DNA of 41,981 nucleotides from Candidatus Saccharimonadales bacterium (GCA_035629655.1 DASPHN010000022.1:1-41981); one strand, 5' to 3'. Counted from the first letter of the stretch, positions 5,243 to 34,209 are shown. Translations and numbers: made by a program. Notes: generated by a model from the letters alone, not told the origin.

Positions 5243-5258
5243 GTATGCGAATGCACAC
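5243..5258. promoter_or_regulatory. Operator-like site GTATGCGAATGCACAC (regulon motif copy 1)
   Basis: AT-rich near-palindrome in the divergent intergenic region between the LLM gene (start 5189, -) and nadX (start 5325, +). It matches the GTATrC-N4-GyAyAC pattern seen at 9 other promoters. Confidence 0.55.
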
Positions 5259-5324
5259 AACGGGTCCACGATGGTCGCCGAGTCGATCGTCGAGGGCTGA
5301 TCCGAGCGGGAGGACGGAGGCAGG

Positions 5325-6128
5325 ATGGGCGTTCGAGTCGTGGTCATCGGGTTCGGTGCGGTCGGCCGGCAGCTGCACGATCTGGTCGCCGATGGGGCGG
5401 CCGGCGAGGCCGAGGTCGTCGGCTTCCTCGTTCGCGACCTGGCGCGCTATCGGGAGATCGCGGCCCGCCAGAAGGTGCCCCTGGTCGCCTCCGTGAGCGA
5501 TGCGCTGGCCCTCCATCCTGACGTGGTCGTGGAAGCCGCCGGCCACGACGCGATGCGCTCGGTGGTGCCGGCCTTCCTCGCGGCGGGCTGCGACGTCATC
5601 GCCATCAGTGCGGGCGCGCTGGCCGACCCCGACCTCGTCGACGAGATCCGTGCCGCAGCCGAGCGAGGCGCGGCCCGCCTTCGGGTCCCCTCAGGGGCGA
5701 TCGCCGGGCTTGACGCCATCAGCGCGGCCGCGGTCGGTCGCATCGAGCGGGTCCGCCATACCGTCCGGAAGCCACCGGCGACGCTCCTGCCGCCGGATGA
5801 GGCCGCAGCGGTCGTCGCCGCCGGCGAGCCACGGGAGCTGTACGAAGGCACGGCCCGCGAGGCCGCCATCCGCTTCCCGGCCAACGTCAATGTGGTCGCC
5901 GCCGTCAGCCTCGCCGGGATCGGGCTCGATCGGACCATGGTCCAGGTCGTCGCGGATCCGGGCGTGACCCGGAACACGCATGAGGTCCTCGTGGAAGGGG
6001 CCTTCGGACGGCTCGAGGTGACCATCGCGAACACCCCGTCCGAGAACCCGAAGACGGGGGTGATCGTGGCCCAGAGCCTGGCCCGCGTGCTGCGTGCCTA
6101 CGGTGAGACGATCGTCGTCGGCGCCTGA
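5325..6128 (+). CDS. nadX: L-aspartate dehydrogenase
   Basis: 267 aa. It has the Rossmann N-terminus VVVIGFGAVG plus PSGAIAGLD and NVNVVAA motifs typical of the NadX family. GGAGG lies upstream. Confidence 0.85.
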   Translation: MGVRVVVIGFGAVGRQLHDLVADGAAGEAEVVGFLVRDLARYREIAARQKVPLVASVSDALALHPDVVVEAAGHDAMRSVVPAFLAAGCDVIAISAGALADPDLVDEIRAAAERGAARLRVPSGAIAGLDAISAAAVGRIERVRHTVRKPPATLLPPDEAAAVVAAGEPRELYEGTAREAAIRFPANVNVVAAVSLAGIGLDRTMVQVVADPGVTRNTHEVLVEGAFGRLEVTIANTPSENPKTGVIVAQSLARVLRAYGETIVVGA

Positions 6129-6384
6129 TCCGGCCGCGAGACCACGCATGACGCCCAAGACCCCCAGCCACCCGGCCGCCGTGGAACATCACTCGTGACG
6201 AACTCGGGTGGACCGGCCGCTCAGCGGTCCGGTGGAACAAGGGACGTGCCATCGGACGGAGGGACGGGCCGATACCGTCCACTCAAGCAGAGCTCGGAAC
6301 ACGTGATGTGCCGGGATGGCGCGGTAGCGCTGCTGCCTCGTCGCCTCGCCTCGCCGCGCCGCGGCCGCCTCGCCGGGGACGTGC

Positions 6385-6714
6385 TCAGCCGGGCGAGTAG
6401 TCCGTGAAGATGCTCCGCGACGGCCGCCCTTCGACGAACGGGGCGGCGATCTCGCGGATCCGGAACATCGACTCGCTGGCCGCGTACGCATCGAGGGCCG
6501 CCTGGTCCTGCCAGACCTGCAGGTAGACGTGCCGGCCGCTTTCGAAGTCGCCGAAGAACCGGAAGTCGAGCAGGCCCGGCACCATCCGGAAGGCCACGGC
6601 CGTGCGCTCGGCCAGCTGCTGCGCGTCCGCGACGGACATCGTCGGCGCCTGCCACTCGATGAGCGAGGTGATGCGGGTCTCGGTCGATCCGGTCGGTTCG
6701 TTCGGCTGGTCCAT
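6385..6714 (-). CDS. Small ABM-like (antibiotic-biosynthesis-monooxygenase fold) protein
   Basis: 109 aa from the internal ATG at 6714 (GGGAG upstream). The sequence pattern (GLLDFRFF...YLQVWQDQAALDAY) resembles ABM/ferredoxin-like barrels. High GC3. Confidence 0.5.
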   Translation of the reverse strand: MDQPNEPTGSTETRITSLIEWQAPTMSVADAQQLAERTAVAFRMVPGLLDFRFFGDFESGRHVYLQVWQDQAALDAYAASESMFRIREIAAPFVEGRPSRSIFTDYSPG

Positions 6715-6803
6715 GGCGGGCTCCCATCGGTGACATCGGCGGAGGTCGGCCCCGAATCGTCGCACGTTCGGGGAAGGTTCGACTGTCATCTCGCCGGCCG
6801 ACC

Positions 6804-6819
6804 GTATACAATCGGATAC
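6804..6819. promoter_or_regulatory. Operator-like site GTATACAATCGGATAC (regulon motif copy 2)
   Basis: Lies in the divergent intergenic region between the ABM-like gene (6714, -) and the small ORF/DHOD-like operon (6869, +). It has the CAATCG core shared with sites at 14770, 21157 and 24511. Confidence 0.6.
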
Positions 6820-6868: not shown

Positions 6869-7096
6869 ATGAGCGATACCGATTGCGAGGCTCTGCGGGC
6901 CGAGATCAAGACCCTGCAGGAGGAGTTCGAGGGGCTGTGGCTCCAGGTCTCGGCGGGAGCGACGCCCACGCCACGCTACCGGGAGCTGCGACGGATGATC
7001 GACGAGCTCCGCGCCAAGGCGACGGCCGAGTGCGATCCGGTCGGCGAGGACAGCGCTCTGCCGCGCAGCATCTCGTCGGACTGGCGGGCGGGCTGA
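6869..7096 (+). CDS. Hypothetical small coiled-coil protein (75 aa)
   Basis: ATG with GAGGA upstream and very high third-position GC. Heptad-like EALRAEIKTLQEEFEGL. No recognisable family. Confidence 0.45.
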   Translation: MSDTDCEALRAEIKTLQEEFEGLWLQVSAGATPTPRYRELRRMIDELRAKATAECDPVGEDSALPRSISSDWRAG

Positions 7097-7154
7097 CCCA
7101 GGGGCACCGTCGATCGGTCGGCACCCCGACCGCGACCGTGGCACCATCACCGCC

Positions 7155-8246
7155 ATGACCATCGACCTCAACGGCATCCGGCTCCGCAACCGCCTCCTGA
7201 CCTCGGCCAGCCTGCTCGGCTACGGCGCCTCGAAGCGCAAGCTCATCCTCTACGGCCTGAGCCCCATCGCCCAGTGGGTCCCCCTGGAGCGGTTCGGCGC
7301 GGTGACCACCAGGACCCTGACCGTCGAGCCCCGGGAGGGCCACTTCTCCCTCCGCGAGGACTGGTCGCTGACCGAGTTCCCGAAGATGCTCCAGCTCTAC
7401 GGCAAGGCGCTGCGCCGGGTCGATGCCGGCTGGATGAACGCCTTCGGCTGGTGCAACATCGGCATCGACGCGTACTTCGACGAGTACTTCCCACGGACCG
7501 CGGACCAGAACCGGATCGTCTCGCTCGGCGGCTTCTCCGCGGACGAGTTCGAGCGCCTGGTCGAGACCACCAATGAGCGCGCGAAGCCGGGTGAGATCGC
7601 CGCGGTCGAGTTCAACGTCTCGTGCCACAACGTGAACTTCCCGTTCGAGACGATCCTCGACGAGGTCCTGAGCCGCGCCGTCCCGAAGAGCCGCCACCCG
7701 GTCATCCTCAAGCTGTCGCCGGACGAGGACTACGTCGGCCAGGCTCAGATGGGCGCCCGGCACGGCGTCGCGGCACTGACTGCGATCAACGCGGTCAAGG
7801 GCCTGCGCCTCGACCCCGAGACCGGCGAGCCGTTCATGAAGAACCGCTACGGCAGCATCTCTGGACGGGCCATCAAGCCGATCGGCCTGCGCGTCGTCGC
7901 CGAGCTACGGGACGCCGGCATCCAGCTGCCGATCATCGCGACCGCGGGGATCCGCGATTACGACGACTGCCGTGAGTTCTTCTGGGCGGGCGCCGACGCG
8001 GTCAGTCTCGGCAGCGCGGTCTGGCTGACCCGCATGCCGCTCTACGCGCTGGGACCGCTCGAGGGCATCCGCCTCCGACGGCTGATCTCGCGCATGGAGC
8101 GGTTCACGCCGCCGGCCGGTGCGCCCCACTGGACACCTGAGGGCGCGCGCGACGGGACCCCGCTCCACGTGAACCTCGATCCGGTGCCCGAGCTCGTGGG
8201 CTTGGCGAATGGCGCCCATCCGAGCGCGTCGGTGCCGACCGCCTAG
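7155..8246 (+). CDS. Dihydroorotate dehydrogenase-like (class 1 PyrD/PreA family) FMN oxidoreductase, divergent
   Basis: 363 aa. Has an NVSCHN active-site-like loop (canonical N-x-S-C-P-N), GSISGRAIKP, and IIATAGI...GADAVSLGSA. Confidence 0.8.
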   Translation: MTIDLNGIRLRNRLLTSASLLGYGASKRKLILYGLSPIAQWVPLERFGAVTTRTLTVEPREGHFSLREDWSLTEFPKMLQLYGKALRRVDAGWMNAFGWCNIGIDAYFDEYFPRTADQNRIVSLGGFSADEFERLVETTNERAKPGEIAAVEFNVSCHNVNFPFETILDEVLSRAVPKSRHPVILKLSPDEDYVGQAQMGARHGVAALTAINAVKGLRLDPETGEPFMKNRYGSISGRAIKPIGLRVVAELRDAGIQLPIIATAGIRDYDDCREFFWAGADAVSLGSAVWLTRMPLYALGPLEGIRLRRLISRMERFTPPAGAPHWTPEGARDGTPLHVNLDPVPELVGLANGAHPSASVPTA

Positions 8247-8260: not shown

Positions 8261-9349
8261 CTAGGCCGCGCCGGCCACCGCCCAGCGCTCGTACGCCGCG
8301 CGCAGGATCGCCAGCCGCCGCTCCACGTTGCGCTGCTCGTTCGTGCCGTGCTGCGACAGCTCCGAGAACTCGACGAGCGCTGGATCGCGCTCGGATTCGG
8401 GGAGATCCAGCGCCGCGAGCCGCGTCCGTCCGAACCACTCGAGGAATGTTCGGACCCGGTCGACCGCCGCCCGACCCGGCTTGGCCTCCGGCAGGGCCTC
8501 ACCCACGAACAGGTAGGCCAGGAGCGCCTGTGCCGGCGACCCCAGCAACGGGTCGCGCGGAGCGAACACGGCGTCGAGGCGGTCGAGCGTCGCGTCGACG
8601 GTCGCGAGGAGGGCCGGGCCCGCGTCACCCGGGAGCCGCCGGTTCGCTCGCGCGAAGGTGTCGAGGGCCGGCCCGCGCAGGTCCGGGATGGTCGTCTCGC
8701 CCTGTGCCCGCGCCCACTCGATCGCCAACAGCCGCGCCGCCAGGTCGTAGTGTTGGTGGCGCCCGTTCGAGAAGTGCAGCCGGTCCCGGAAGAACGGGCG
8801 GGCGCCGACCTCTCGGATCAGGCGGACGACGTCGCCACCCATGGCGTTGCGCTTCTCGGCCGCGTTGAGCGGCTCGCCATTGTTCAGGCGCGAGAAGAGA
8901 TCTTCGATGTCCTCGTCGGTGGCGTGCCGGATGAGGACGACCGACAGGAACGTGTCCTCGAACACGCTGCGCCAGCGCGGATCGAGCTCCGAGAAGCGCT
9001 GCCCGGCGACCGGCGTGACGGCGTCCTCGGGGAGCTCCGGGGGCACGTTCCGGGACTCGATCCGGAAGTCATCCGCGAGCGCGAACCCGTCGGTGAGGAA
9101 CGACCACAGCGTGGTGAGCCGCTGCTTGCCATCCACGATCGCGTAGACCTTGGTCGGATGCTCCCCACGCAGGTCGTGCAGGTAGATCTTCGGCACGTCG
9201 TAGCCGTTGAGCAAGGAATCGATGAAGAGCTGCTGCTTGTCGAGCGACCAGACCGCGCTCTCGCGCTGGTACGGCGGTCGCTCCTCGATGGCACTCTTCC
9301 AGCGGAGCGACTTCTTGATCGTGAAGTGCTGGGCCAGGATGCAGCGCAT
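8261..9349 (-). CDS. DUF262 domain protein (ParB-like / GmrSD N-terminal-like), no recognisable DUF1524/HNH domain
   Basis: PPYQRESAVWSLDKQQLFIDSLLNGYDVPKIYL and YAIVDGKQRLTTL match the DUF262 (DGQQR) signature. The ATG at 9349 was chosen because the longer TTG start at 9418 would overlap the upstream ORF. Confidence 0.75.
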   Translation of the reverse strand: MRCILAQHFTIKKSLRWKSAIEERPPYQRESAVWSLDKQQLFIDSLLNGYDVPKIYLHDLRGEHPTKVYAIVDGKQRLTTLWSFLTDGFALADDFRIESRNVPPELPEDAVTPVAGQRFSELDPRWRSVFEDTFLSVVLIRHATDEDIEDLFSRLNNGEPLNAAEKRNAMGGDVVRLIREVGARPFFRDRLHFSNGRHQHYDLAARLLAIEWARAQGETTIPDLRGPALDTFARANRRLPGDAGPALLATVDATLDRLDAVFAPRDPLLGSPAQALLAYLFVGEALPEAKPGRAAVDRVRTFLEWFGRTRLAALDLPESERDPALVEFSELSQHGTNEQRNVERRLAILRAAYERWAVAGAA

Positions 9350-9368
9350 CAGCCCGGCCGGCGGGCGG

Positions 9369-9596
9369 TCACTCGTAGACCGTGATGTTCGGCTCGTACT
9401 TGCAGCGGCATCCGGCAAGGCTGGTGCAATCGGCCAGCGGCAGCAGGGGCAGGCCCGACGGCAGGTAGGCCATGTCGGTCACGGCCAGGCACGCGGGACA
9501 GGCGTTCGAGTCGGCGGCGACCAGGGACACGCCGTCGATCGTGCCATCGAGGTACAGCTCGTTGAAGCGCTGGATCTCCGCCGGACGCTCGTCCAT
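9369..9596 (-). CDS. Hypothetical small Cys-rich protein (75 aa; C-P-A-C ... C-x5-C-R-C)
   Basis: High GC3. Its ATG overlaps the stop of the upstream FAD oxidoreductase (TGATG). Five Cys are arranged like a zinc knuckle. Confidence 0.55.
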   Translation of the reverse strand: MDERPAEIQRFNELYLDGTIDGVSLVAADSNACPACLAVTDMAYLPSGLPLLPLADCTSLAGCRCKYEPNITVYE

Positions 9597-10702
9597 CAGC
9601 CGATCAGCACGAAGCGGTCGAGCCGGTACGGGTCCAGCCGCGCGACGGGCTCCCCGAGCAGCTCATCGGCAACAAGGCGACCGAGGATCGGGGCGAGCGT
9701 CGCGCCGCTGTGCGAGACGACGACGTACAGGCCATCGACGGCCGGTGCGGGCCCCACCGCCGGGACACCGTCGACCGGGACGGACCGGATGCCGATGCGA
9801 ACCTCGTCCGCGGCCACGCCCCGGAGCCCGGGCACGAGCCGCGCGGCGCGGGCAAGCACGTCGGCCACTGCCGGGTCGTCGGGTGCCAGGTCGCGCGTCG
9901 AGGGCTCCAGCGCGGCGTCCGCCTCTCGCGACGAGACGAGCAGCCGGTCGTCACCGTCGGGTCGGAGCGCGACGTCGCCGGCGTGGATGACCCGCCCGAT
10001 CCGGGTCGCGGTCGGCTCGGTGCGCACGAGCAGCCCGGGGGATGGGGCCATCGGCAGCCGCACGTGCGCGGTCGCGGCGAGTGCCTCGGATGCCGGACCG
10101 GCGGCGATGACGACGTGATCCGCGACGTGGACCGCGCCAGTGGCGGTCCGGACGCCGGTGGCCCGGCCCTCGTGCACGGCGATCGAGGCGATGTCGTCAC
10201 TCATCAGCGCGGCGCCGGCCGTGGTCGCTGCTTCGACGAGCCGATCGACCAGCGCTCGGGCGTCGAGCCAGCCCTCGTCGGGAAAGTGGGCGGCAACGAA
10301 CGGCCCGTCGTCGTCACCGAGATCGAGCGCGGGCTCCAAGGCGAGGACCCCGGCCCGATCGAGCGACCGGACCGGGTAGCCAAGGGCCAGATGCCGTTCG
10401 ATCTTGTCCTGGAGCTTCGCCGCTCCCGGCCCACGGCCGACCGCCAGGTCGCCGCCGGCGTGGAACCAGTCACCACCCAGGGCCGCGGCGAGGTCAGCGT
10501 AGGCCGCGACGCCATCGCGGTTCAGCTCGAAGTAGGCCGCTGGTGCCTTCTCCTGGGCGTTGACCCAGGCGAAGCTGGACCCGGACGTGCCGCCACCGGG
10601 AGGACCCGAGTCGACCAGCGTGACCGGCGCGCCCCGGGTGGCGAGCTGGTGGGCGAGCGAGGCGCCGAGCAGGCCCGCGCCGACGACGATGATCCCGCTC
10701 AT
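9596..10702 (-). CDS. FAD-dependent oxidoreductase (DAO / glycine-D-amino-acid oxidase family)
   Basis: Start at ATG 10702 with GGAGG upstream. N-terminal IIVVGAGLLGASLA dinucleotide fold. The ORF part upstream of 10702 is Arg/Ser/Pro junk. Confidence 0.85.
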   Translation of the reverse strand: MSGIIVVGAGLLGASLAHQLATRGAPVTLVDSGPPGGGTSGSSFAWVNAQEKAPAAYFELNRDGVAAYADLAAALGGDWFHAGGDLAVGRGPGAAKLQDKIERHLALGYPVRSLDRAGVLALEPALDLGDDDGPFVAAHFPDEGWLDARALVDRLVEAATTAGAALMSDDIASIAVHEGRATGVRTATGAVHVADHVVIAAGPASEALAATAHVRLPMAPSPGLLVRTEPTATRIGRVIHAGDVALRPDGDDRLLVSSREADAALEPSTRDLAPDDPAVADVLARAARLVPGLRGVAADEVRIGIRSVPVDGVPAVGPAPAVDGLYVVVSHSGATLAPILGRLVADELLGEPVARLDPYRLDRFVLIG

Positions 10703-10733
10703 CGGGCTGCCTCCATCCGGCGACGACGACCGC

Positions 10734-10937
10734 TCAGGACGCCGGCTCCTTGGGGCGGTCCAGCGCCAGCTGGCCGGCCCGTGCGAAGTTCTCGGGTGGG
10801 ACCTCCTCGAACCGAAGGGTGACGATGTCCGGGTCGACGCCCCAGGCCTCGACGACGGCATCGGTCAGCCGTTTGGCGAGGTCCCGTTTCTGCTCGACCG
10901 TCCGGCCGCTGATGGCCTGGACGATGATCCTCGGCAT
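10734..10937 (-). CDS. 4-oxalocrotonate tautomerase family protein
   Basis: 67 aa, MPRIIVQ... with catalytic Pro1 and the typical length and pattern (GRTVEQKRDLAKRLTDAV). Confidence 0.85.
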   Translation of the reverse strand: MPRIIVQAISGRTVEQKRDLAKRLTDAVVEAWGVDPDIVTLRFEEVPPENFARAGQLALDRPKEPAS

Positions 10938-10958
10938 CGGTCGTCCCTCCTGTGCGCC

Positions 10959-12122
10959 CTACGGGCGCGCGATCGCTGTCTCGCGGTGTTCCACCTTCTC
11001 GTAGCCGGTCCACAGCGGCTCGTAGAAGTAGCGCACGCCGAACTCGATGCGAAGCGTCCGGGTCCTGGCGTCCGACGGATTGAAGTGCTCGTGTCGCGTC
11101 ATCTTGGGCGGGACGTGGACGGCGTCGCCGGCCTCCCAGTCGTAGTGCTCGAAGTCGATCTCCGAGAACCCGACCCCCTCGAGGACGTACAGCACGGCCT
11201 CCGTGTGCGAATGGCAGTGGCTCGAGGTGTGCGGGACCTCCTCGAAGATGTTCGTCATCGCGACCGAGACGGCCGTGAAGCCGTTGCGCTCCGCGCTCGG
11301 GCTCTCGCCGCCCCCCATGAGGATGTAGATGGCCCCGTGGCGGTGCGGGTTCTCCGAGCTGTGGCGCTTCACCTTGCCGTGGTCGGAGGTGTGGGCGTGG
11401 CCCGGCTCGCTGGCATGGCCGCCGCCACCGCCGTGGTCGCCATGACCATGGCCATCGTGACCGTTGCCGCTCGACGCGGACGGGCCGCCGGCGGCCTCGG
11501 CGGCCTTCGCTTCGGCCTTGGCCTGCTCGCGCCGCTGCTGCTCGTCGGGCGCGTCCTCGAGGTGCAGCGCGATGCGCCGGCCCTGCGTGTCGAACTGGCC
11601 GTCCTCGGCGGACAGGCGGTCCTCGAACCCGGCCTCGTTCGTGCCCTTGTCCTCGAGCTGCTCGAGCCGACCGAGCTTGACGTACAGGTCGAGGTCGATC
11701 GAGGACGCCGAGACGAGCTCGATCTCCTCGTCGCCGGTGTTGAACAGCTGATGGTCGGCCATGTACGGGACGTGGATGGTGGTCCCGGCGTGGAAGTCGT
11801 AACGGCGGCCCTCGACGACGATGCAGCCGCGCCCGCTCAGGACGTGGATCGCCTCCTCGCCGTGGCGATGCCGACCGGTGTGGGTCCCGACCGGGATGCC
11901 CACCTTGGTCACGCTGGTGCCCTGGGTGGGAAAGCCGACCTGCTCGCCGATGAGCATCGCGATCCGATGGTCCTGGCGTGTCTCGATCCAGATCAGGTCA
12001 CGACCGTGGGACACGACGGGGGTCGTGTTGACGCTCATCTCGTTGTGCTCGCTTCGGGCGAGCCAGTCCTCGTAGAAGTCGTTCCGCTCGAGGCGGGTGA
12101 TCGGATGCCACCCCGTCGTCAT
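10959..12122 (-). CDS. Bicupin metalloprotein (dioxygenase-like) with His/Gly-rich interdomain linker
   Basis: Two cupin motif-1 signatures (GTHTGRHRHGEEAIHVLSG and SHCHSHTEAVLYVLEG). ATG at 12122 with AGGAGA upstream. Confidence 0.8.
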   Translation of the reverse strand: MTTGWHPITRLERNDFYEDWLARSEHNEMSVNTTPVVSHGRDLIWIETRQDHRIAMLIGEQVGFPTQGTSVTKVGIPVGTHTGRHRHGEEAIHVLSGRGCIVVEGRRYDFHAGTTIHVPYMADHQLFNTGDEEIELVSASSIDLDLYVKLGRLEQLEDKGTNEAGFEDRLSAEDGQFDTQGRRIALHLEDAPDEQQRREQAKAEAKAAEAAGGPSASSGNGHDGHGHGDHGGGGGHASEPGHAHTSDHGKVKRHSSENPHRHGAIYILMGGGESPSAERNGFTAVSVAMTNIFEEVPHTSSHCHSHTEAVLYVLEGVGFSEIDFEHYDWEAGDAVHVPPKMTRHEHFNPSDARTRTLRIEFGVRYFYEPLWTGYEKVEHRETAIARP

Positions 12123-12207
12123 CGGGCTCTCCTGTGGTGCGTGGCGAGGGACCGGACGAGCCGGCGGGGCGTGACCGGGTGAGCCGGTCGCGCCCCGCCG
12201 GACCCGT

Positions 12208-13650: not shown

Positions 13651-13711
13651 CGCTTCTCCATTCGCGTTGCTATGGACTGGATCACCGGTGATCTCCCGGC
13701 AGGGCCGGGGG

Positions 13712-16422: not shown

Positions 16423-16531
16423 GTGACCCTCCTGTGTCTGGTTGCGGGCGACCCCCCCGACGGCGTGGCCGGAAGGGGCGGCGGGAGATCGGCCGCCAGA
16501 CCACGCGGCGACCGGAGGACGGGGGTGCCGA

Positions 16532-26195: not shown

Positions 26196-26279
26196 GGGAA
26201 CGACCCTCGCCCACGACGGCCTGATCGGATGCGTCCGCCAGGGTCGCCACCACCCATCGCGCAAGGAGAGACAGCAGGA

Positions 26280-27656
26280 ATGGCTGACACCGTGGATCTC
26301 ATCGTCAAGAACGGCACCGTCGTCACCAGCGACTCGACGTTCGACGCGGACATCGCGATCAAGGACGGCAAGTTCGTCGAGATCGCCGACCCGGGGACCC
26401 TGACCGCGACCGCCGCCGAGGAATACGACGCCGCCGGGAAGTACGTGATCCCCGGCGTCATCGACGGCCACGTCCACTTCCGCGAGCCGGGCCTCGAGTA
26501 CAAGGAAGACTGGCGGACCGGATCGACCGCGGCCATCCATGGCGGCGTGACGACCGTCATCGAGATGCCGAACACCAACCCCAAGACCGACACGGTCGCG
26601 GGCGTCGAGCTCAAGCAGAAGCTCGCCGAGGAGAAGTCGTACGTCGACTTCGGGATCATCGGCCTGCTCGTCCAGGACAGCGTCCCGGCCCTGCGTTCGC
26701 TTGCCGAGGCCGGCGTCGTGGGCTACAAGTGCTTCCTTGGCGAGACGATCGGGAACATCCCGGCGCCGGACGACGGCATGATGCTGGACGGGTTGCGCGA
26801 GATCGCGGCGACCGGCCTGCGCATCGGCTTCCACGCCGAGAACAACGAGATCATGCAGCACCTCATCCGCCAGCTGAAGGCGGAGGGCCGGACGGACCCG
26901 CTCGCCCACGTCGACTCGCGGCCGGCGCTCGCCGAAGTCGAATCGATCCAGCGCATGGGCCTGTACGCGCAGCACACGGGCGCGAAGATGCACATCTTCC
27001 ACCTGTCCAGCCGAGACGGCCTGGACATGATCGATGAGTGGCGCGCCAAGGGCGTCGACGTGACGACCGAGACGGGCGCCCACTACGTGTTCATGAAGGC
27101 CGAGGACATGGAGCGCGTCGGCGTCCGACTGCGCATGAACCCGCCGGTCCGCTACGGCACCGAGGGCCACGGCGACTACCTGCTCGAGGGCATCAAGGAC
27201 GGGCGCGTGAACATGATCGCGACCGACCACTCGCCGCACACGGCCGAGGAGAAGCTCAACGACGACATCTGGAAGGCGATCTCGGGCTTCCCGGGCGTCG
27301 AGACCAGCGTCCGCTTCTTCCTGACCTTCGGCGTCAACGCCGGCCGGATGACGCTCCAGCAGTTCGTCCGGGCGAGCTCCGAGGGTCCCGCCAAGACCTG
27401 GGACATCTACCCGCAGAAGGGCACGATCGCCGTCGGCTCCGATGGCGACCTCACGATCCTCGATCTCGACAAGGAAGGCGTCATCCGCGATGACGAACTC
27501 CACAGCAAGAACCATGTCACGCCCTTCGATGGCACGGCCACCAAGGGCGCCCCTGTCGCGACCATCGTCCGCGGCCAGATCGTCATGCGTGACGGCGAGG
27601 TCGTGGGTGAGGCGCGAGGCCGGATGGTCCGGCCGCGGGTGGCCGTCCCGGCCTGA
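26280..27656 (+). CDS. Cyclic amidohydrolase (dihydroorotase / allantoinase / hydantoinase family)
   Basis: Metal ligand pattern DGHVHF, carboxylated-Lys context GYKCFLGE, FHAEN, HIFHLSS, ATDHSPH. AAGGAGA lies upstream of ATG 26280. Confidence 0.9.
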   Translation: MADTVDLIVKNGTVVTSDSTFDADIAIKDGKFVEIADPGTLTATAAEEYDAAGKYVIPGVIDGHVHFREPGLEYKEDWRTGSTAAIHGGVTTVIEMPNTNPKTDTVAGVELKQKLAEEKSYVDFGIIGLLVQDSVPALRSLAEAGVVGYKCFLGETIGNIPAPDDGMMLDGLREIAATGLRIGFHAENNEIMQHLIRQLKAEGRTDPLAHVDSRPALAEVESIQRMGLYAQHTGAKMHIFHLSSRDGLDMIDEWRAKGVDVTTETGAHYVFMKAEDMERVGVRLRMNPPVRYGTEGHGDYLLEGIKDGRVNMIATDHSPHTAEEKLNDDIWKAISGFPGVETSVRFFLTFGVNAGRMTLQQFVRASSEGPAKTWDIYPQKGTIAVGSDGDLTILDLDKEGVIRDDELHSKNHVTPFDGTATKGAPVATIVRGQIVMRDGEVVGEARGRMVRPRVAVPA

Positions 27657-28069: not shown

Positions 28070-28525
28070 TCAGGGGGCGGCGGCGATCTCCTTCGCGGCG
28101 TTCTTCGCGAAGTCGCCGACCATCTGGTCCGCCTTGCGGCGCATGACGGCCTGTCCGAATTCGCCGAGCTTGCCCAGGATCGATGCCTCGGTGTGGATGA
28201 CCAGCTCGGTCTCGGCGTCACTGATCGGGACCAGCGTCATCGACGTCTTGGCCGACACCGTGCTGTTGATGCGCTTCTCGGTGGCCGAGACGTCGAGCCG
28301 GGAGGTGAGGTTCTCGCGGTCGCGCTCCGCGACGACGATCTTGCCCTGCAGGCGCACCCCGATCGGCCCGACCTTGACCTTCAGCGCCCCGCTGAACGTG
28401 TCGTCGTCGATGCGCTCGAACTCCTCGACGCCGGGGACGCACCGGCTGACCGCCGGGATGTCGGTGACGAATGCCCAGACGCGGTCCACCGATGCCGGGA
28501 TGCGCGCCTTCTGGTCGATGATCAT
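28070..28525 (-). CDS. coxG: CoxG-family SRPBCC protein
   Basis: 151 aa with a typical CoxG pattern (VWAFVTDIPAVSRCVPGVE...GPIGVRLQGK). AAGGAG lies upstream. It is the last gene of the hydroxylase operon. Confidence 0.85.
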   Translation of the reverse strand: MIIDQKARIPASVDRVWAFVTDIPAVSRCVPGVEEFERIDDDTFSGALKVKVGPIGVRLQGKIVVAERDRENLTSRLDVSATEKRINSTVSAKTSMTLVPISDAETELVIHTEASILGKLGEFGQAVMRRKADQMVGDFAKNAAKEIAAAP

Positions 28526-28578
28526 CGGTCAAGACTCCTTCGCGGGCCGGCGGCCCGCCACTCGATGGCTTCGGATCC

Positions 28579-30933
28579 CTAGTCTGCCGGAGACGTCGCT
28601 CCGGTCGTCGTCTGGCGTTCCGCCAGGGCGGCCAGCAGTCGTTCCGCGTTGATGGGCAGGCGGTCGACCCGGATGCCGACCGCATCGGCAACCGCGTTGG
28701 CGATGGCCGGTGCGACCGGCGCATTCGTGACCTCGCCGGCCGCCTTGGCGCCGAACGCCCCGGGGCCGACGGTCGTCGGGAGCTGGACGATCCGAAGCGG
28801 CGGCATGTCGCCGGCCGTCGGCAGCTTCATCTCGCCGAGGTTGAGCGTCGTGATGGCGCCATCCTCGACCTCGAGGCCCTCCATCAGCGCGGCGCCGAGC
28901 CCGAAGGCGAACCCTCCAGCCAGCTGGCCCCGATGGGCGACCGGGTTGATGACCGTGCCCACATCGACGACGAGCAGCGCATCGATCACCCGGACGGTGC
29001 CACTCGCCTCGTCGACCTCCACCTCGACGGCGCACGCCCCGAAGTCATGGTCGCCGGGCTCGTCCGGACCGTGCGGCGCCGACGCGTCGAAGACGACCGA
29101 CAGCTCGACCGGCTCGGCCTCGGGAACGAGGCGGGCGGTGACCGCCTCGAAGGTCGCGATCTCCCGTCCATCCGCCGGATCCACGAGGCGATCGTCTCGC
29201 CACGTCGCGCCGCTCGGCACGTCCGGGATCGCCTGCGGCAGGCGCTCGTCGATCCACGCCTCCACGGCCGTGGCCAGATCCGCCGCACCGCGACTGGCCA
29301 GGTGGGTGATGCGGCTGCCCCCGATGCCGGGGTCGAACGGGGCGTCGGCCGTGCTGACCTTGGTCACGAGCACCCGGGCCTCGCTCACGCCGAGACTCAT
29401 GGCCAGGACCCGGCGCAGCACCGTCCAGCCACCGCTCCCCTGGTCGGGGAGGCCGGTGAGGATCTCGAGCCGTCCGTCGTGGTGCAGGCGGACGCGGAGC
29501 GGCAGCTTGCCACCACCCACGTGCCGGGCGCTCATCGCCACGCCGATGCCGCGGCCGGGCCGGCGGGGCCGGTCCCAGGGCAGCTCGCGGGCGACGGCAT
29601 CGAGGACTTCGACGGCACGCGTCTCGCGGAACCTCGCGCCGGTCGCGCCGACCTCGCCGTCCCGGACCGCCACCCGGCGTCGGAAGGCGAGTGCATCCTC
29701 GCCGAGGGCGCGGGCGATCTCATCGAGGTGGGACTCACCGGCGAACAACGCCTGGACTTCGCCTGGGGCGCGCATGTGCCCACCGGGCACGGTGTTCGTG
29801 TAGATCGTCGTGGCGACGATCCGGACGTGCGGGATGCGATACGCGGCGAGCGTCGCGGTCGCGCCGGCGAGCGACAGGTGGGGCAACGGCTTGGCGGCCG
29901 CGTAGGCGCCGCCATCGAGCCGGATCTCCGCGTCGTGCGCGAGCAGGTTGCCCTCCGCGTCGAGCGCGGTCCGAAGCCGCATCGTGGCCGCGTGTCGGAC
30001 GTTCTGGGCGCCGATCTCCTCGGCGTAGCGGGTCACGGCCTTGATCGGCCGGCCGGTGGCGCGGGCGAGGGCCACACAGGCGTACTCGTCGACGCAGTAG
30101 CCCTTGCCCCCGAAGTCGCCGCCGATGAAGCCGGCGTCGACGTCGATCTGGTCGGCCGTCAGGCCGAACGTGGCCATCAGCTGCTTGCGGAGCGGGAAGG
30201 GGGTCTTGTTCGTCGTGATGACCCGGATCACACCGGCCTCGTCCACCCAGACGAGCGTGGCGTGCGGCTCGATGTAGCCGGCGTGCTGGCGCGGCGTCGT
30301 GAACCGATGCTCGAAGACCCGCGCCGCGCTCGCGAAGACCGCCTCGAGGTCGGCGTCGTCGCGGCGGACCCGGACGGCGCCCTGGACGTTCGGGTGCGGG
30401 ACGGGCTGTCGCTCGCCATCGACGTAGCGATAGGAGGCGAAGTCGGGATGGAGGACGGGCGCATCCGGATCGAGCGCAGAATCGAGATCGAGGACGGCTG
30501 GCAGCGGCTCGAGGTCCACGTCGATCTCGGCCAGGGCGGCATCCGCCTGGGCCACGGTCTCGGCGGCGACAGCGGCCAGCCGGTCGCCGACGAAGCGGAC
30601 CTGATCCCAGGCCAACACCGGGCGGTCCGCCAGGCGACGGCCGTGCAGCAACCCGCGCAGATCGTCGCCGGTCAGCACGGCATGGACGCCGGGCATCGCC
30701 CGAGCGCGGGTCGCGTCGATCGATCGGATGCGGGCATGCGGCAGCGGGCTCCCGAGGAAGCGCGCCCAGAGCATCCCGGGCATCACATGGTCCGCGGCAT
30801 ACCGGGCGGCGCCGGTCACCTTGGCCCGTCCCTCGACGCGCTCCTCGGGCCGGGCGAGCGCCTCGAGCGTCCCGGCGTCGGGCGGCGCGGGCCGGCCGTG
30901 GTCGTCGTGGTCGTCGTGCCCGCCGCCGCTCAT
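28579..30933 (-). CDS. Molybdopterin-binding large subunit of a xanthine-dehydrogenase-family hydroxylase (set 1)
   Basis: 784 aa from ATG 30933 (ATGA overlap with the medium-subunit stop). GGDFGGKG, YTNTVPGGHMRAPG, and a C-terminal GAKAAGEV. No CODH VAYRCSFR loop was seen. Confidence 0.9.
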   Translation of the reverse strand: MSGGGHDDHDDHGRPAPPDAGTLEALARPEERVEGRAKVTGAARYAADHVMPGMLWARFLGSPLPHARIRSIDATRARAMPGVHAVLTGDDLRGLLHGRRLADRPVLAWDQVRFVGDRLAAVAAETVAQADAALAEIDVDLEPLPAVLDLDSALDPDAPVLHPDFASYRYVDGERQPVPHPNVQGAVRVRRDDADLEAVFASAARVFEHRFTTPRQHAGYIEPHATLVWVDEAGVIRVITTNKTPFPLRKQLMATFGLTADQIDVDAGFIGGDFGGKGYCVDEYACVALARATGRPIKAVTRYAEEIGAQNVRHAATMRLRTALDAEGNLLAHDAEIRLDGGAYAAAKPLPHLSLAGATATLAAYRIPHVRIVATTIYTNTVPGGHMRAPGEVQALFAGESHLDEIARALGEDALAFRRRVAVRDGEVGATGARFRETRAVEVLDAVARELPWDRPRRPGRGIGVAMSARHVGGGKLPLRVRLHHDGRLEILTGLPDQGSGGWTVLRRVLAMSLGVSEARVLVTKVSTADAPFDPGIGGSRITHLASRGAADLATAVEAWIDERLPQAIPDVPSGATWRDDRLVDPADGREIATFEAVTARLVPEAEPVELSVVFDASAPHGPDEPGDHDFGACAVEVEVDEASGTVRVIDALLVVDVGTVINPVAHRGQLAGGFAFGLGAALMEGLEVEDGAITTLNLGEMKLPTAGDMPPLRIVQLPTTVGPGAFGAKAAGEVTNAPVAPAIANAVADAVGIRVDRLPINAERLLAALAERQTTTGATSPAD

Positions 30934-31796
30934 CGGGGACCGGCGCCGATGGCACGAGCCAGGGCGCGTGCCGTCCAGAGCCGGACCATCGCCTGCTTGT
31001 AGGTGCGCGACCCCCTGACGTCGTCGACCGGATCCGAGGCATCCGCGGCGGCCGCGGCGGCACCCTCGAACGCGCCGGACGACGGCGTCGTGCCGCGCAG
31101 GATGGCCTCCGCCTCGACGGCCCGGAACGGGATGGGGCCGGCGTTGCCGAGCGCGATCCGGGCATCGGCGACCGCGCCGTCCGCGTCCAGGTCGAGCCGA
31201 ACGGCGACGCTGACCGTCGCGTAATCGTCGACGGTCCGCGGGAGGAACTTCTCGTACGCGAAACGGGCGGCGGTGGCCGGTCTGGGCACCCGGATGGCCG
31301 TGAGGATCTCGTCCGGCTCGATGGCCGTCTCGAAGACATCGACGAAGAAGTCCGCGAGCTCGACGGTCCTCGTGCCGCGCTCGCTGGCGAGGACGACCGA
31401 GGCGTCGTGGGCGAGAAGCATCGGCGGCGGGTCCTGCGCCGGGTCGGCATGGACCAGGTTGCCTCCGATCGTCGCCTGGTTCCGGATCCGGATGGTGGCC
31501 ACCCGCGCGACCGCGGCCGCCAGGGCTGGGGCATGCGCACGCACGAGCGGATGGCGCTCCACGTCGCGCAGGCTGGTGAGCGCACCGACCTCGAGGGTGT
31601 CGCCGTCGATGGCGACCGCTCGGAGGGCATCGAGCCCGCCGAGCCCGATCACGATCGAGGGCTGGATCAGGCCCTGCTTGAGGAGCGGGACGACGGCCGT
31701 GCCGCCGGCCAGGAGGTGGGCCGCATCGCCGTGCGCAGCGAGCGCGGCGATCGCCTCGGCCGTGCTGGCCGGCCCGAGATACGCGAAAGCGCTCAC
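30930..31796 (-). CDS. FAD-binding medium subunit (CoxM/XdhB-like), set 1
   Basis: LLAGGTAVVPLLK and IRNQATIGGNL motifs. GTG 31796 forms a GTGA overlap with the small-subunit stop. Confidence 0.88.
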   Translation of the reverse strand: MSAFAYLGPASTAEAIAALAAHGDAAHLLAGGTAVVPLLKQGLIQPSIVIGLGGLDALRAVAIDGDTLEVGALTSLRDVERHPLVRAHAPALAAAVARVATIRIRNQATIGGNLVHADPAQDPPPMLLAHDASVVLASERGTRTVELADFFVDVFETAIEPDEILTAIRVPRPATAARFAYEKFLPRTVDDYATVSVAVRLDLDADGAVADARIALGNAGPIPFRAVEAEAILRGTTPSSGAFEGAAAAAADASDPVDDVRGSRTYKQAMVRLWTARALARAIGAGPR

Positions 31797-32302
31797 CGGC
31801 CGTCGCCGCTGGGCGTGGCATGGCCGGGCCGGGCGGCCAGGACCGAGGCGACGATGCCGTCGTACCCGGTACAACGGCACAGGTTCCCGGTCATCCACTC
31901 GCGGATGGCCGGCTCGTCAGCGTCGGGCTGCTCGGCGAGCAGCGCCGTCGCCGCCACCACCTGGCCCGGCGTGCAGATCCCGCACTGGAATCCGCCGTGC
32001 TGGAGGAACGCGTCCTGCACCTTCGAGAGGCTCCCGTCATCGCCGGCGATCCCCTCGATGGTCGTGATCGAGCGGCCGGCCAGCGACACGACCGGGAGGA
32101 GGCATGCCGACTGCAGCGCGCCGTCGACCAGGACGCTACAGGCCCCGCACACGCCGATGGAGCAACCCTCCTTCGTGCCGGTCAGGCCGAGGTCGTCGCG
32201 GAGGAGGTCGATGAGCAGGCGATCGGCCGGGACGGCCTCGTCGAACCGGCGGCCGTTGACCGTCAGCTGCATCCGGATGTGCTCGGCGGGCATGGTCCCC
32301 AT
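31793..32302 (-). CDS. [2Fe-2S] small subunit (CoxS-like), set 1
   Basis: CSIGVCGACSVLVDG and QCGICTPG...NLCRCTGY cluster motifs. The start could be ATG 32302 or 32293. Confidence 0.92.
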   Translation of the reverse strand: MGTMPAEHIRMQLTVNGRRFDEAVPADRLLIDLLRDDLGLTGTKEGCSIGVCGACSVLVDGALQSACLLPVVSLAGRSITTIEGIAGDDGSLSKVQDAFLQHGGFQCGICTPGQVVAATALLAEQPDADEPAIREWMTGNLCRCTGYDGIVASVLAARPGHATPSGDGR

Positions 32303-32319
32303 GGTCTCGCCATGTTAGC

Positions 32320-32335
32320 GTATACCGCAGTACAC
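32320..32335. promoter_or_regulatory. Operator-like site GTATACCGCAGTACAC (regulon motif copy 8)
   Basis: Lies in the divergent region between coxS-like (-) and the ThDP enzyme (+), 18 nt from the coxS-like ATG. Confidence 0.5.
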
Positions 32336-32403
32336 GAAGGCACATCGATGACGTCGTCCGCACGCTTTGACGACGCTTCGGCGCGATCCCCGAGGTGCCC
32401 CCG

Positions 32404-34152
32404 ATGGCTGCGAGCGACGCCCCCAGATTCGGCTCGGACGTGATGGTGGACCTGCTCATCGAGCAGGACATCCCCTACGTCGCGCTCAACCCGGGCGCGA
32501 GCTTCCGGGGGCTCCACGACTCACTGGTGAACCGGCCGGGTGCGCCCGAGATCATCGTCTGTCCGCACGAGAAGCTGGCGGTCAACCTGGCCCACGGCTA
32601 CGCGAAGGCGACCGGCAAGCCGATGGCCGCGATCCTGCACAACGTCGTCGGACTCCTGCACGGGACGTTGGGCGTGTTCACTGCCTACGTGGACCGCTCG
32701 CCGGTCATCGTGCTGGGTGGCTGCGGCCCGATGGACACCGAACGCCGCCGACCGTGGATCGATTGGCTCCACACAGCCAACATCCAGGGCAACGCGGTCC
32801 GAGACTTCACGAAGTGGGATGACCAGCCGGCCTCGATCGAGGCCATGCCCGCGGCCTTCGCGCGGGCCCGGCGGATCGCCCTGACCGAACCGGCAGGTCC
32901 GGTCTACCTCGCGCTCGATGCCGACCTGCAGGAGCGCGAGTTCTCCGGCGAGGTCCCGGTCATCGACTGGGCGAAGGTCGGTCCGGGCAGCCCGATGGCG
33001 CCTGATCAGACGGCCCTGAACGACGCGGTCGACCGCCTGGTCGCCGCCGAGCGGCCGGTGATCGTCGCCGGCTACGCCGGTCGCGAGCCGCGTGCCTTCG
33101 AATGGATCCCGACCCTCGCCGAGAGCCTCGGCGCCGGGGTCATCGACATGAACAGCCGGCTGAACCTGCCGACGACCCATCGGCTGAACGTGACCGGCAC
33201 CGAGGCGCTGGCCGACGCCGACGTCGTCCTGTTGCTGGACATGAAGGACACGTCCAAGGTCCTGCGCGAGGTCGACTCCGCCACGCGCATCCAGTCCTCG
33301 AAGGTCGCGGCCGGGACGCAGCTCATCGAGATCGGGTTCAACGACCTCCAGGCGTCGTCCTGGATCCACGACGTCGGACCGATCCACGCGATGGACGTCT
33401 CGATCACGGCCGACACCACGGTCGCGCTGCCGATCCTCATCGAGCGGGTCGGCGAGCGGGTGGCGGCCGACACGCCAGCCCGCGCCGAGGCGCGCGAGGC
33501 GCGTCGGACGAGCCTGGCCGACCTCCACCGCGAGCGCCGTGCGAGCTGGCGGGCGGTCGCGGAACGGCGCTGGGAGGAGACCCCCATCTCGCCGGCTCGC
33601 CTGGCGGCCGAGGTCGGCGATGCGATCGCCGAGCATGACTGGGTCCTGACAGCCGGCACGGCGAACGAGTGGGCGCTGCGCCTGTGGGACTTCGACAAGG
33701 CGTACCGGCATCCCGGTCGCACCCTAGGGACGGCGACCCAGATCGGCCTCTCGCTCGGCGTGGCCCTGGCCCATCGCGACCAGGGCCGGCTGGTCGTGGA
33801 CCTGCAGCCTGACGGCGACCTGATGTTCGACCCGGGCGCGCTCTGGGTCGCCTCGGCGCACCGCATCCCGATGCTCGTCGTGATGTTCAACAACCGCGCC
33901 TACTACAACGACTGGGAGCACCAGATCCGCCTGGCCAAGGCGCGCGGCTCGGACCTGGAGAAGGCCCACATCGGCGTCAACATCGACGGCCCCGCCCCGG
34001 ACTTCGCCGGGCTCGCCCGGTCGTTCGGCTGGGCTGCCGAGGGCCCGATCGAGGATCCGGATGCGATCGGCGACGCGGTCCGGCGGGCCGTTCGGATCGT
34101 CCTGGAGGAGGGACGGCCCGCGCTGGTCGACGTGGTCTGCGCCCATCGTTGA
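32404..34152 (+). CDS. Thiamine-diphosphate-dependent enzyme (acetolactate synthase / benzoylformate decarboxylase-like)
   Basis: N-terminal Pyr domain (HEKLAVNLAHGYAKATGKP) and a C-terminal ThDP motif (DGDLMF...NNRAYYN). ATG 32404 is preferred over GTG 32395. Confidence 0.88.
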   Translation: MAASDAPRFGSDVMVDLLIEQDIPYVALNPGASFRGLHDSLVNRPGAPEIIVCPHEKLAVNLAHGYAKATGKPMAAILHNVVGLLHGTLGVFTAYVDRSPVIVLGGCGPMDTERRRPWIDWLHTANIQGNAVRDFTKWDDQPASIEAMPAAFARARRIALTEPAGPVYLALDADLQEREFSGEVPVIDWAKVGPGSPMAPDQTALNDAVDRLVAAERPVIVAGYAGREPRAFEWIPTLAESLGAGVIDMNSRLNLPTTHRLNVTGTEALADADVVLLLDMKDTSKVLREVDSATRIQSSKVAAGTQLIEIGFNDLQASSWIHDVGPIHAMDVSITADTTVALPILIERVGERVAADTPARAEAREARRTSLADLHRERRASWRAVAERRWEETPISPARLAAEVGDAIAEHDWVLTAGTANEWALRLWDFDKAYRHPGRTLGTATQIGLSLGVALAHRDQGRLVVDLQPDGDLMFDPGALWVASAHRIPMLVVMFNNRAYYNDWEHQIRLAKARGSDLEKAHIGVNIDGPAPDFAGLARSFGWAAEGPIEDPDAIGDAVRRAVRIVLEEGRPALVDVVCAHR

Positions 34153-34193
34153 GCCGCGTGGCTGTGTACCGCCACGGCGGCGAGTACTTGTTC

Positions 34194-34209
34194 GTATGCG
34201 ATAGCATGC
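34194..34209. promoter_or_regulatory. Operator-like site GTATGCGATAGCATGC (regulon motif copy 9)
   Basis: Lies about 30 nt upstream of the ABC-2 ATPase start. Confidence 0.55.

Follow-up and report, generated by a model that had tools for sequence, protein, structure and literature searches.

The window analysed here, the 41,981-nucleotide stretch DASPHN010000022.1:1-41981 (GCA_035629655.1, labelled Candidatus Saccharimonadales bacterium), contains a nutrient-breakdown gene cluster of about 40 kb, and the question it raises is whether the operons of this cluster answer to a single regulator. A 16-bp palindromic site is observed upstream of nearly every operon. A preliminary description of the sequence had proposed that this motif ties the operons into one regulon under a FadR-type GntR protein encoded at 20352–21074 (+). 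The single regulon is supported by the contrast in motif density between intergenic and coding DNA of ten related loci, by the positional counterparts of the sites at orthologous promoters, and by invariant motif columns in alignments of diverged intergenic DNA. The motif has a rigid internal spacing, is conserved at orthologous promoters, and overlaps conserved promoter boxes. Judged from sequence and by analogy with related proteins, the sites are probably the operators of one regulon, most likely bound by the GntR protein, a regulator with an FCD effector domain, acting as a repressor. Of the case made for this protein, its standing as the sole regulator and the site at its own promoter hold, and its binding to the sites is presumed.

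The nine 16-mers listed in the preliminary description are found exactly, each in one copy in the window, and the spacer cores reported for them, CGATTG/CAATCG in four sites and CGCN in three, are recovered as well. The GC content of the window is 70.1%, in agreement with the background of roughly 70% given earlier. With up to two mismatches allowed, GTATRCNNNNGYAYAC gives 20 strand-hits, compared with 4.2 ± 2.2 in dinucleotide shuffles of the whole window, none of which (0 of 100) scores as high. Because AT-rich words are expected to accumulate between the genes of a GC-rich genome, a stricter test was confined to the 3.66 kb of intergenic DNA in the window, with each region dinucleotide-shuffled separately (2000 shuffles). 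The self-complementary pattern GTATRCNNNNGYATAC (GTATRC-N4-GYATAC) occurs there at 7, 9, and 13 sites with at most 1, 2, and 3 mismatches, respectively, where 0.01, 0.15, and 1.5 sites are expected; the observed counts are reached in 0 of 2000 shuffles. At up to two mismatches, GTATRC-N4-GYATAC is absent from the approximately 38 kb of coding DNA in the window. Of the GTATRC/GYATAC hexamers in the whole 42 kb, 10 of 13 are intergenic, and an enumeration of trinucleotide dyads that presupposes no pattern ranks GTA-N0-TAC first, with GAT-N8-ATC and TAT-N8-ATA also at the top. The comparison with coding and shuffled DNA that had been suggested at the outset for the whole genome, made here on the window, finds the motif concentrated in intergenic DNA and rare in both controls. 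An artefact of chance or composition is ruled out by the region-wise dinucleotide shuffles together with the contrast between intergenic and coding DNA.

A symmetrised weight matrix derived from 45 sites reads G1 t2 A3 T4 r5 C6 - N4 - G11 y12 A13 T14 a15 C16. The matrix has dyad symmetry, and so does the hexamer GYATRC, which is its own reverse complement and has G1/C6 and A3/T4 conserved to the same degree. Outside the 16 bp, the information does not exceed about 0.6 bit in the positions next to the core and is approximately zero further out. One hexamer of each pair is usually imperfect, so counts of exact-hexamer pairs are too strict, and spacing was therefore evaluated by anchor-offset scoring. 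A partner that matches in at least five of six positions lies at exactly 10 bp from 34 of the 49 exact intergenic hexamers and at 20 bp from 7 of them; no other spacing tested in intergenic DNA is enriched. Three hexamers in register are observed in the window at 14770–14795 and 32310–32345, as well as in the related loci L001 (14271/14281) and L009 (183/193). Every window site contains GTATAC or a variant of it that differs at one position. The initial characterization of the motif as a classic GT...AC palindrome of GntR proteins is too loose, as the unit is the self-complementary GYATRC repeated exactly 10 bp apart. A repeat of the REP or MITE type, or a mobile element, is ruled out, because the similarity stops at the 16-bp core and the flanks carry no information. 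No Rfam family of structured RNA or riboswitch scores above threshold anywhere in the window.

Placement of the sites depends on the gene map, which was built from reading frames defined by GC content at third codon positions (GC3), Pfam domains, start codons, and small open reading frames (ORFs); GC3 alone overlooked several genes, and the map was corrected with Pfam. Ten sites are present, as described earlier, in eight intergenic regions rather than ten promoter regions. These eight are exactly the regions that must contain promoters, and the convergent and intra-operon gaps of the window contain no site. Distances of roughly 20–95 nt from a start codon had been given for most sites; with refined starts, the sites lie 17–68 nt from the nearest start, except for the EamA operon, where the distance is about 200 nt. 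The DHOD-like gene is reached from the site at 6804 via a small 75-residue ORF. The weakest site, at 21157, departs from the symmetric pattern at three positions.

The pattern defined on the window was then applied as an independent test to ten orthologous loci from uncultured Chloroflexota-type genomes (500 shuffles). The related loci examined in this work were anchored either on GntR homologs (L001, L009, and L012–L018) or, independently, on the thiamine diphosphate (ThDP)-dependent enzyme of the cluster (L019–L021). At up to two mismatches, the ten loci contain 34 matches in 21.7 kb of intergenic DNA, compared with 0.75 expected (shuffle maximum, 5), and 2 matches in 174 kb of coding DNA, so that the density of the motif in intergenic DNA is approximately 85 to 140 times that in coding DNA. 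The "coding" matches in the tables for individual loci lie at or beside called starts. Gene calls in several of the long-read relatives are frame-shifted or fused (L001 13194–14100, where the lyase is in three pieces; L013 13225–14967; L021), and the classification of matches as coding is therefore unreliable there; a 580-residue "isochorismatase" call is also found in L013. Every site in the window has a positional counterpart at the orthologous promoter, even where the gene order differs. Loci without the LLM2 gene (L001 and L012) keep the site at the lyase promoter, and L017, where the AMDase gene is missing, keeps the EamA site. In intergenic alignments, mean column identity is 41–53% and the motif columns are invariant. 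The ThDP-anchored loci carry the motif with no regulator within 10 kb and were counted as neutral. L012 and L020 are two stretches of one contig, along which sites are spread over no less than 34 kb, with a single GntR gene. More distant GntR homologs from other phyla (L002–L007, L010, and L011; 26–33% identity) lie in loci that lack the motif, apart from one match with two mismatches in L007, and these loci were uninformative for the comparison.

The gene set of the cluster is conserved among the loci and its order is shuffled: in L001, L012, L013, and L014 the PrpF–lyase pair neighbours the asparaginase gene, which in L017 is followed by the Cox genes. Among representative genomes, the GntR protein has one close relative, in a Chloroflexia metagenome-assembled genome (MAG; L001), with 69% identity. 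Soil metagenomes contain 913 GntR homologs at E ≤ 1e-20, of which the best 120 of 913 are 65–100% identical, and one listed homolog has the label Candidatus Limnocylindrales. The source label of the window, a Candidatus Saccharimonadales MAG, stands against its 70% GC content, its large catabolic cluster, and its closest relatives, which are Chloroflexia, Limnocylindria, and Chloroflexota MAGs; the contig is probably mis-binned.

Several sites coincide with promoters. A consensus scan of positions 5100–25000 returns only three sigma-70-like promoters, and all three overlap operators: TTGACC-17-TAGAAT at 20245..20217 (−; 10 of 12 matches), whose −10 box is the right end of the operator O1 of the ABC-1 operon; TTGACC-18-TAAGAT at 24589–24618, invariant in alignment A5 and with a −10 box that forms the left end of the UbiD2 operator; and CTGTCA-18-TACAAT at 6783–6812, whose −10 box lies inside the operator at 6804. 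The TTGACC and TAAGAT/TAGAAT boxes are invariant across loci. The "defects" GCATTC and AGATAC in these sites arise because the hexamer must double as a −10 box. This overlap of operator and promoter fits repression.

The region between the ABC-1 operon and gntR was aligned across nine loci (alignment A3). Operator O1, GTATGCCGCGGTATTC, at 20205–20220 in the promoter of the ABC-1/SDR operon, is present in 9 of 9 loci, and 12 of the 24 invariant columns of the alignment fall within or directly beside it. Further along, the preliminary description had identified a two-site repeat, GTATAC-N17-GTATAC, which does not stand as a unit. Its first hexamer, at 20317–20322, is part of the −10 box TATACT (20318–20323, +) of the gntR promoter. 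In this box, four of six positions (A, A, C, and T) are invariant and the other two are kept in most loci; the base that precedes it varies (G/C/T), so the hexamer GTATAC at 20317 is itself not conserved, and no partner hexamer is found 10 bp from it. The second GTATAC, at 20340–20345, is the left hexamer of a tenth 16-bp site, operator O2, GTATACGGTGCCATGC (20340–20355; two mismatches), which lies over the gntR start codon at 20352, so that the promoter and start codon of gntR carry a site themselves. The left hexamer of O2 conforms to GYATRC in 8 of 9 loci and is fixed at 10 bp from an invariant ATGC, and the second hexamer contains the conserved gntR ATG. O2 is detected at up to two mismatches in L001, L009, L016, and L018. 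Within the ABC-1 operon of L013, between the permease and binding-protein genes, an extra motif, GTATGCAGGTGCATTC, is observed at 8471 and suggests an internal promoter.

The remaining sites lie at the following positions. In the divergent region between the LLM2–lyase–PrpF operon and nadX, GTATGCGAATGCACAC is found as an exact site at 5243–5258, 53 nt from the LLM2 GTG (5189) and 66 nt from the nadX ATG (5325), with counterparts at the lyase promoter in L001 (14271/14281) and L012 (15248). A candidate minus-strand promoter read by eye, TGGACC (5263–5268, reverse complement)-17-TACTAT (5240–5245, reverse complement), would place this site in the spacer and the −10 box. Between orfS (−) and the DHOD-like unit (+), the exact site GTATACAATCGGATAC is located at 6804–6819; its counterpart in L015, GTATACAATTGGATAC at 4248, lies 37 nt ahead of the homologous small ORF. 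The operator between the EamA operon and the AMDase-like gene, GTATGCGATTGTATCC, occupies 14770–14795 together with a third hexamer, GCATGG, in 10-bp register. Here the block GGTATGCnnnnGTATCCTAsTGCATGG is invariant and is kept in L012, L013, L014, L017, and L018, and alignment A4 suggests a minus-strand promoter with a −10 box TAGGAT (14782–14787, reverse complement) and a −35 box TTGCGC (14805–14810, reverse complement). The last part of the block, TAsTGCATGG (14786–14795), is invariant in the same five loci, including L017 with no AMDase gene, and may be a third hexamer in register rather than a start codon. An AMDase start at the ATG at 14792 was rejected, since this ATG is not in frame in L012 or L018 and since the block persists in L017; the start at 14849, with a GGAGG ribosome-binding site, matches the lengths of the orthologs. 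The EamA operon appears to have a leader of about 200 nt from the predicted −10 box to the start codon (14570–14787), with no match to an Rfam family, and the distance from site to start is similar in five other loci (173–213 nt).

Upstream of the asparaginase unit, the weaker operator GGATACGATTGTCCAC (21157–21172) lies 51 nt ahead of the ATG at 21224, which has an AGGAGG ribosome-binding site, and has counterparts at 10799 in L013 (GTATACGATTGTTCAC) and at 10781 in L001. Two sites are placed between the TauE and UbiD2 genes. The TauE-proximal site, GTATCCAATCGCATAC (24511–24526), is exact, lies 54 nt ahead of the TauE ATG at 24456, and has a counterpart, GTATCCAACCGTATAC, at 2346 in L019; the UbiD2–amidohydrolase promoter contains AGATACCGCTGCATAC (24615–24630), and the identical 16-mer is found in L012, L013, L018, and L019. 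In the divergent CoxSMLG/ThDP region, GTATACCGCAGTACAC (32320–32335) is flanked by degenerate hexamers, the whole extending over 32310–32345. Counterparts with the same TTAGC/GTAGC left flank are visible in L019 (9959, plus 9893), L020 (9956), and L021 (9923), and a plus-strand promoter, TGGTCC-17-TAGCGT (32293–32321), may be read here by eye. Finally, the exact site GTATGCGATAGCATGC (34194–34209) lies upstream of the ABC-2 operon, 31 nt ahead of the ATG at 34241, and a perfect site, GTATGCGGTAGCATAC, is present at the equivalent position between the ThDP and ATPase genes in L019.

The 240-residue protein encoded by gntR is composed of an N-terminal winged helix-turn-helix domain (PF00392, E = 5.7e-19; residues 69–129 of the long form of the ORF) and a C-terminal, all-helical FCD effector domain (PF07729, E = 1.6e-32); no NCBIfam equivalog is matched. 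Its homologs in the PDB are all FCD-type regulators, with Atu1419 (6z74) at E = 9e-18 and NanR (6on4) more distant. By inspection, the recognition helix contains S60-R61-T62-P63-V64-R65, an R-T-x-x-R arrangement, and His152, His196, and His218, candidate metal-binding residues of the FCD pocket, fall at the expected helices. A basic N-terminal extension of about 26 residues (20352–20430; MP...PRS..DGLPSSE) precedes the winged helix-turn-helix domain and is conserved in P0051; the MP... N terminus is conserved. The protein had been described as the only regulator in the window, and it is the only one that Pfam or NCBIfam detects. A second regulator was sought among the ORFs of unknown function at 6385–6789, 22238–22954, 27407–27892, and 39993–40529, which give no Pfam or NCBIfam hit.

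From the sites and the protein together we infer a mechanism, namely the identity of the binding protein, its stoichiometry, the direction of regulation, and the effector. The recognition unit is GYATRC, present nearly always in two copies 10 bp apart from centre to centre and sometimes with a third in register. Each hexamer would be taken by one GntR dimer, such that two, and sometimes three, dimers would sit abreast on one face of the helix. Without inducer, GntR would cover the −10 box, the spacer between −35 and −10, or the first transcribed bases and so block RNA polymerase at about 13 transcription units (approximately 35 genes, 2195–39859), including that of gntR itself. A small-molecule effector, probably a carboxylated N-heterocycle or an intermediate of the pathway, would enter the putative metal-containing FCD domain and free GntR from the DNA. 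That the 16-mer comprises two dimer sites one helical turn apart is somewhat favoured, because a GTATAC-type hexamer is a full dimer site in related FCD regulators and the hexamer is self-complementary.

The same regulon and regulator are compatible with another assembly, in which one GntR dimer spans the 16-bp palindrome with a winged-helix domain on each hexamer, as in the 16-bp operators of the HutC type. The overall dyad with its mirrored asymmetry (R at position 5 and Y at position 12), the strict 10-bp spacing, and the prevalence of sites with just two hexamers all speak for a single dimer. Such a dimer gives no reason, however, for a hexamer that is self-complementary with G1/C6 and A3/T4 equally conserved. 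Third hexamers are also found in register at several sites. In addition, the FCD complexes described (PMC7797058) read guanines approximately 5–8 bp apart by our count, not 15, and one GTATAC suffices for DipR (PMC11472048). We regard the single spanning dimer as possible but doubtful. It is unlikely that the sites are genuine operators of a regulator encoded elsewhere, with the neighbouring GntR in charge of other genes or of its own gene alone. The part of the genome in view is limited to 42 kb, sites without a regulator within 10 kb are present in the ThDP-anchored loci, and an IclR-type gene is also found nearby in L014. Nevertheless, GntR is the only regulator common to the loci, lies in the middle of the cluster, and has conserved sites at its own promoter and start, and related FCD GntR proteins recognise exactly the GTATAC-type hexamer (PMC11472048 and PMC7797058). 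Moreover, on one long contig GntR is located 25 kb from the ThDP sites in the same cluster.

The direction of regulation and the need for a dedicated protein are to be weighed in the same way. FadR is a dual regulator, and this precedent, together with the sites at 24511, 21157, and 34194, whose position relative to a promoter is not fixed, would allow GntR to activate, or to act both ways, at some promoters. Every recognisable promoter, on the other hand, overlaps its site at the −10 box, in the spacer, or where the transcript begins, and the closest characterised analogues, DipR, Atu1419, and NanR, are repressors; activation is accordingly an improbable account. Most improbable is that the AT-rich hexamers are mere −10 elements, or promoter AT composition in a GC-rich genome, with no dedicated protein. 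The hexamer at 20317 is indeed a −10 box, and operators share bases with TAGAAT, TAAGAT, and TACAAT. This account fails on the second hexamer at a fixed 10 bp and on the dyad symmetry; the register of the −10 overlap also differs (within the site, at the left edge of the site, or on the other strand), and the regional shuffles, which preserve AT content, predict the 0.15 sites given above where 9 are observed. For repression by GntR through paired dimers, several points weigh in the opposite direction. GntR binding and an effect on expression are matters that we infer from sequence and analogy, and the assignment of one dimer to each hexamer is likewise an analogy. Position 5 of the hexamer prefers G on the inner side only, which makes the 16-mer, not the lone hexamer, the symmetric unit. 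The related loci are mostly GntR-anchored, so that the co-occurrence of GntR and motif is partly built in, and specificity was assessed over the window and approximately 200 kb of related loci, a scope narrower than the genome. No convincing −35/−10 pair could be placed at the sites at 21157, 24511, and 34194, and repression by occlusion is documented for only about five promoters.

The transcription units assigned to the regulon exceed the span of about 30 kb proposed earlier: the reading as one regulon stands, and its extent is larger, from 2195 to at least 38376, or to 39859 if the MFS gene is co-transcribed. At the left end, LLM2, a phosphoenolpyruvate (PEP)-mutase/isocitrate lyase (ICL)-type lyase, and PrpF form a minus-strand unit (2195..5189; Pfam and start codon), with an ilvD-type dehydratase (1–1291) near the PrpF–lyase pair (2195–4291, −). 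An aspartate dehydrogenase (nadX-like; 5325..6128, +; Pfam) follows, and then the unit at 6869..8246 (+; tblastn, start codon, and Pfam), which combines the small ORF of 75 residues (6869–7096) with the DHOD-like gene (7155–8246). This ORF, overlooked by simple ORF and Pfam screening, is 65% identical by tblastn to an ORF of L015. The EamA operon (8261..14569, −; Pfam) contains EamA, UbiD1, a bicupin, 4OT, an FAD oxidase, a Cys-rich ORF, and a DUF262/GmrSD_N gene, with the same order in L013, L015, and L017. The Cys-rich ORF (9372–9596, −; 75 residues ending ...CRCRYEPxVTVYE) lies between the FAD oxidase and DUF262 genes, is conserved in L012, L015, and L017, and was also overlooked by simple ORF and Pfam screening. 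The GmrSD_N/DUF262 gene (8261–9418, −), which encodes a domain familiar from restriction endonucleases and is last in the operon, occupies the same place in L014, L015, and L017 and is an unexpected partner of catabolic enzymes.

On the other side of the EamA operator, the AMDase/maleate-isomerase-like gene (14849..15580, +; Pfam) encodes 243 residues, as do its orthologs. The ABC-1 operon (15628..20163, −; Pfam) comprises an NMT1-type binding protein, a permease, an ATPase, a second permease, and an SDR; it adjoins gntR in the eight GntR-anchored loci with flanking gene information and is absent beside gntR in L015. Downstream of gntR are found an asparaginase, a protein of unknown function, and an isochorismatase-family hydrolase (21224..23658, +; Pfam and start codon), a TauE/SafE-type exporter (23695..24456, −; Pfam and start codon), UbiD2 with a cyclic amidohydrolase of the allantoinase/dihydroorotase-like type (24684..27656, +; Pfam and NCBIfam), a CoxS-CoxM-CoxL-CoxG-type molybdenum hydroxylase operon (28070..32302, −; Pfam), and the ThDP-dependent enzyme (32404..34152, +; Pfam), taken in the 582-residue form annotated at NCBI. 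The last unit is ABC-2 (ATPase, permease, and binding protein), possibly with an MFS transporter (34241..39859, +; Pfam), in the same order as in L019; the 85-nt gap before the MFS gene has no operator. The regulon probably extends to the right beyond the window, because L019 has a site upstream of a second molybdenum hydroxylase operon. The convergent gaps at 27657–28069 (413 nt) and 39860–40426 (567 nt) contain neither a Pfam-positive ORF nor an operator, and the equivalent of the long convergent gap in L019 measures only 133 nt.

Families relevant to a pathway include two UbiD proteins, the CoxSML hydroxylases, a cyclic amidohydrolase, a DHOD-like enzyme, an asparaginase, an isochorismatase-type hydrolase, and an aspartate dehydrogenase, and further an AMDase/maleate-isomerase-like protein, a bicupin, 4-OT, PrpF with an ICL-type lyase, a ThDP enzyme, two ABC importers, and exporters. 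Family functions suggest that this set points to the catabolism of carboxylated N-heterocycles. The PrpF isomerase and the PEP-mutase/ICL lyase presumably resemble the methylitaconate isomerase and 2,3-dimethylmalate lyase of the anaerobic nicotinate pathway in Eubacterium barkeri. The two UbiD genes of the window would need prenylated flavin mononucleotide; a UbiX-like flavoprotein (PF02441) is encoded in L020 (5495–6172), and no such gene is found in the window.

The operator map provides evidence-based boundaries and a transcription-unit structure for an uncharacterised catabolic supercluster that is common in soil metagenomes, in lineages without cultured representatives. It joins genes whose connection annotation alone would not reveal, among them two UbiD genes, molybdenum hydroxylases, a cyclic amidohydrolase, a ThDP enzyme, two ABC systems, and small ORFs, and GntR becomes a handle for finding the substrate of the pathway. 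Tentatively, the system may go further, with a phased GYATRC array bound by one dimer per hexamer, cooperativity through the basic N-terminal extension as a dyad version of NanR, and a regulon of more than 35 genes for an undescribed carboxylated-N-heterocycle pathway. Such a regulon would unite two UbiD proteins, two to four molybdenum hydroxylases, a cyclic amidohydrolase, a DHOD-like enzyme, and a PrpF/ICL-type lyase pair; the pathway would then be widespread in uncultured soil Chloroflexota (Limnocylindria-like), and the effector of GntR would name its substrate.

Among known systems, the GntR/FadR protein DipR (ASR91163.1) of Alcaligenes faecalis JQ135 represses the dipicolinate dip cluster at six promoters, including its own, through GWATAC; the substrate dipicolinate releases it, and R63/R67 as well as H196/H218 are essential to it (PMC11472048). 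Like the GntR protein of the window, DipR is of the FCD type and is encoded inside a catabolic cluster, in its case for an N-heterocyclic acid, with a recurrent GWATAC/GTATAC hexamer. GTATAC, or a form of it with one change, recurs at each window site, where the consensus is GYATRC. The DNA-reading arginines are spaced i, i+4 in both proteins, R63/R67 in DipR and R61/R65 here, and H196/H218 have the same numbers. The main differences are that the DipR sites are described as single hexamers, whereas pairs exactly 10 bp apart are observed here; that the host of DipR belongs to the Proteobacteria, whereas the loci here come from Chloroflexota-type MAGs; and that the gene content appears unlike that of the dip cluster, with several molybdenum hydroxylases and two UbiD decarboxylases here, whereas dipicolinic acid degradation in JQ135 reportedly needs no molybdenum cofactor (PMC11472048, introduction).

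Atu1419 of Agrobacterium fabrum (FCD/VanR; PDB 6Z74, 6ZA3, and 6ZAB) binds as a dimer to the 10-bp palindrome ATGTATACAT, contacts DNA through Arg45, Thr46, and Arg49, with Arg45 of helix α3 reading G, and forms a tetramer whose two dimers occupy palindromes 109–190 bp apart by looping (PMC7797058). Its core, GTATAC, is the same as here, and the equivalent R-T-x-x-R is present in the GntR protein. Operators over −10 boxes are a further likeness, as are autoregulation and a metal-containing FCD domain, both of which are predicted for the GntR protein. The Atu1419 palindromes are far apart, however, whereas the hexamers here are adjacent at 10 bp, and AT flanks of the Atu1419 type are not conserved. 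In NanR of Escherichia coli (FadR subfamily), three dimers bind (GGTATA)3 cooperatively via an N-terminal extension (PMC8012715). The arrays of GTATA-containing hexamers are similar, with one dimer per hexamer in NanR, and the GntR protein also has a basic extension of approximately 26 residues. Three direct GGTATA repeats make up the NanR operator, in contrast to self-complementary hexamers, usually two and arranged as a dyad, here; the NanR-type operator is not found at the window sites, of which only some have a third copy.

The operator of FadR itself is described as TGGTNxACCA (PMC7797058), and the generic consensus of the FadR subfamily is TNGTNNNACNA (Rigali et al., as quoted in PMC11472048). 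The generic operator shares its dyad symmetry and G...C reading with the motif here, and a winged helix-turn-helix domain with an all-helical FCD domain is common to the proteins. The motif misfits TNGT-N3-ACNA and falls into the GTA-TAC subclass that PMC11472048 discusses. With their strict phasing, the hexamer pairs offer a clean test case for the assembly of FCD regulators on adjacent sites. The proposed mechanism is otherwise an ordinary one, an FCD/GntR repressor with GTATAC-class operators that overlap promoters, as shown for DipR, Atu1419, and NanR.

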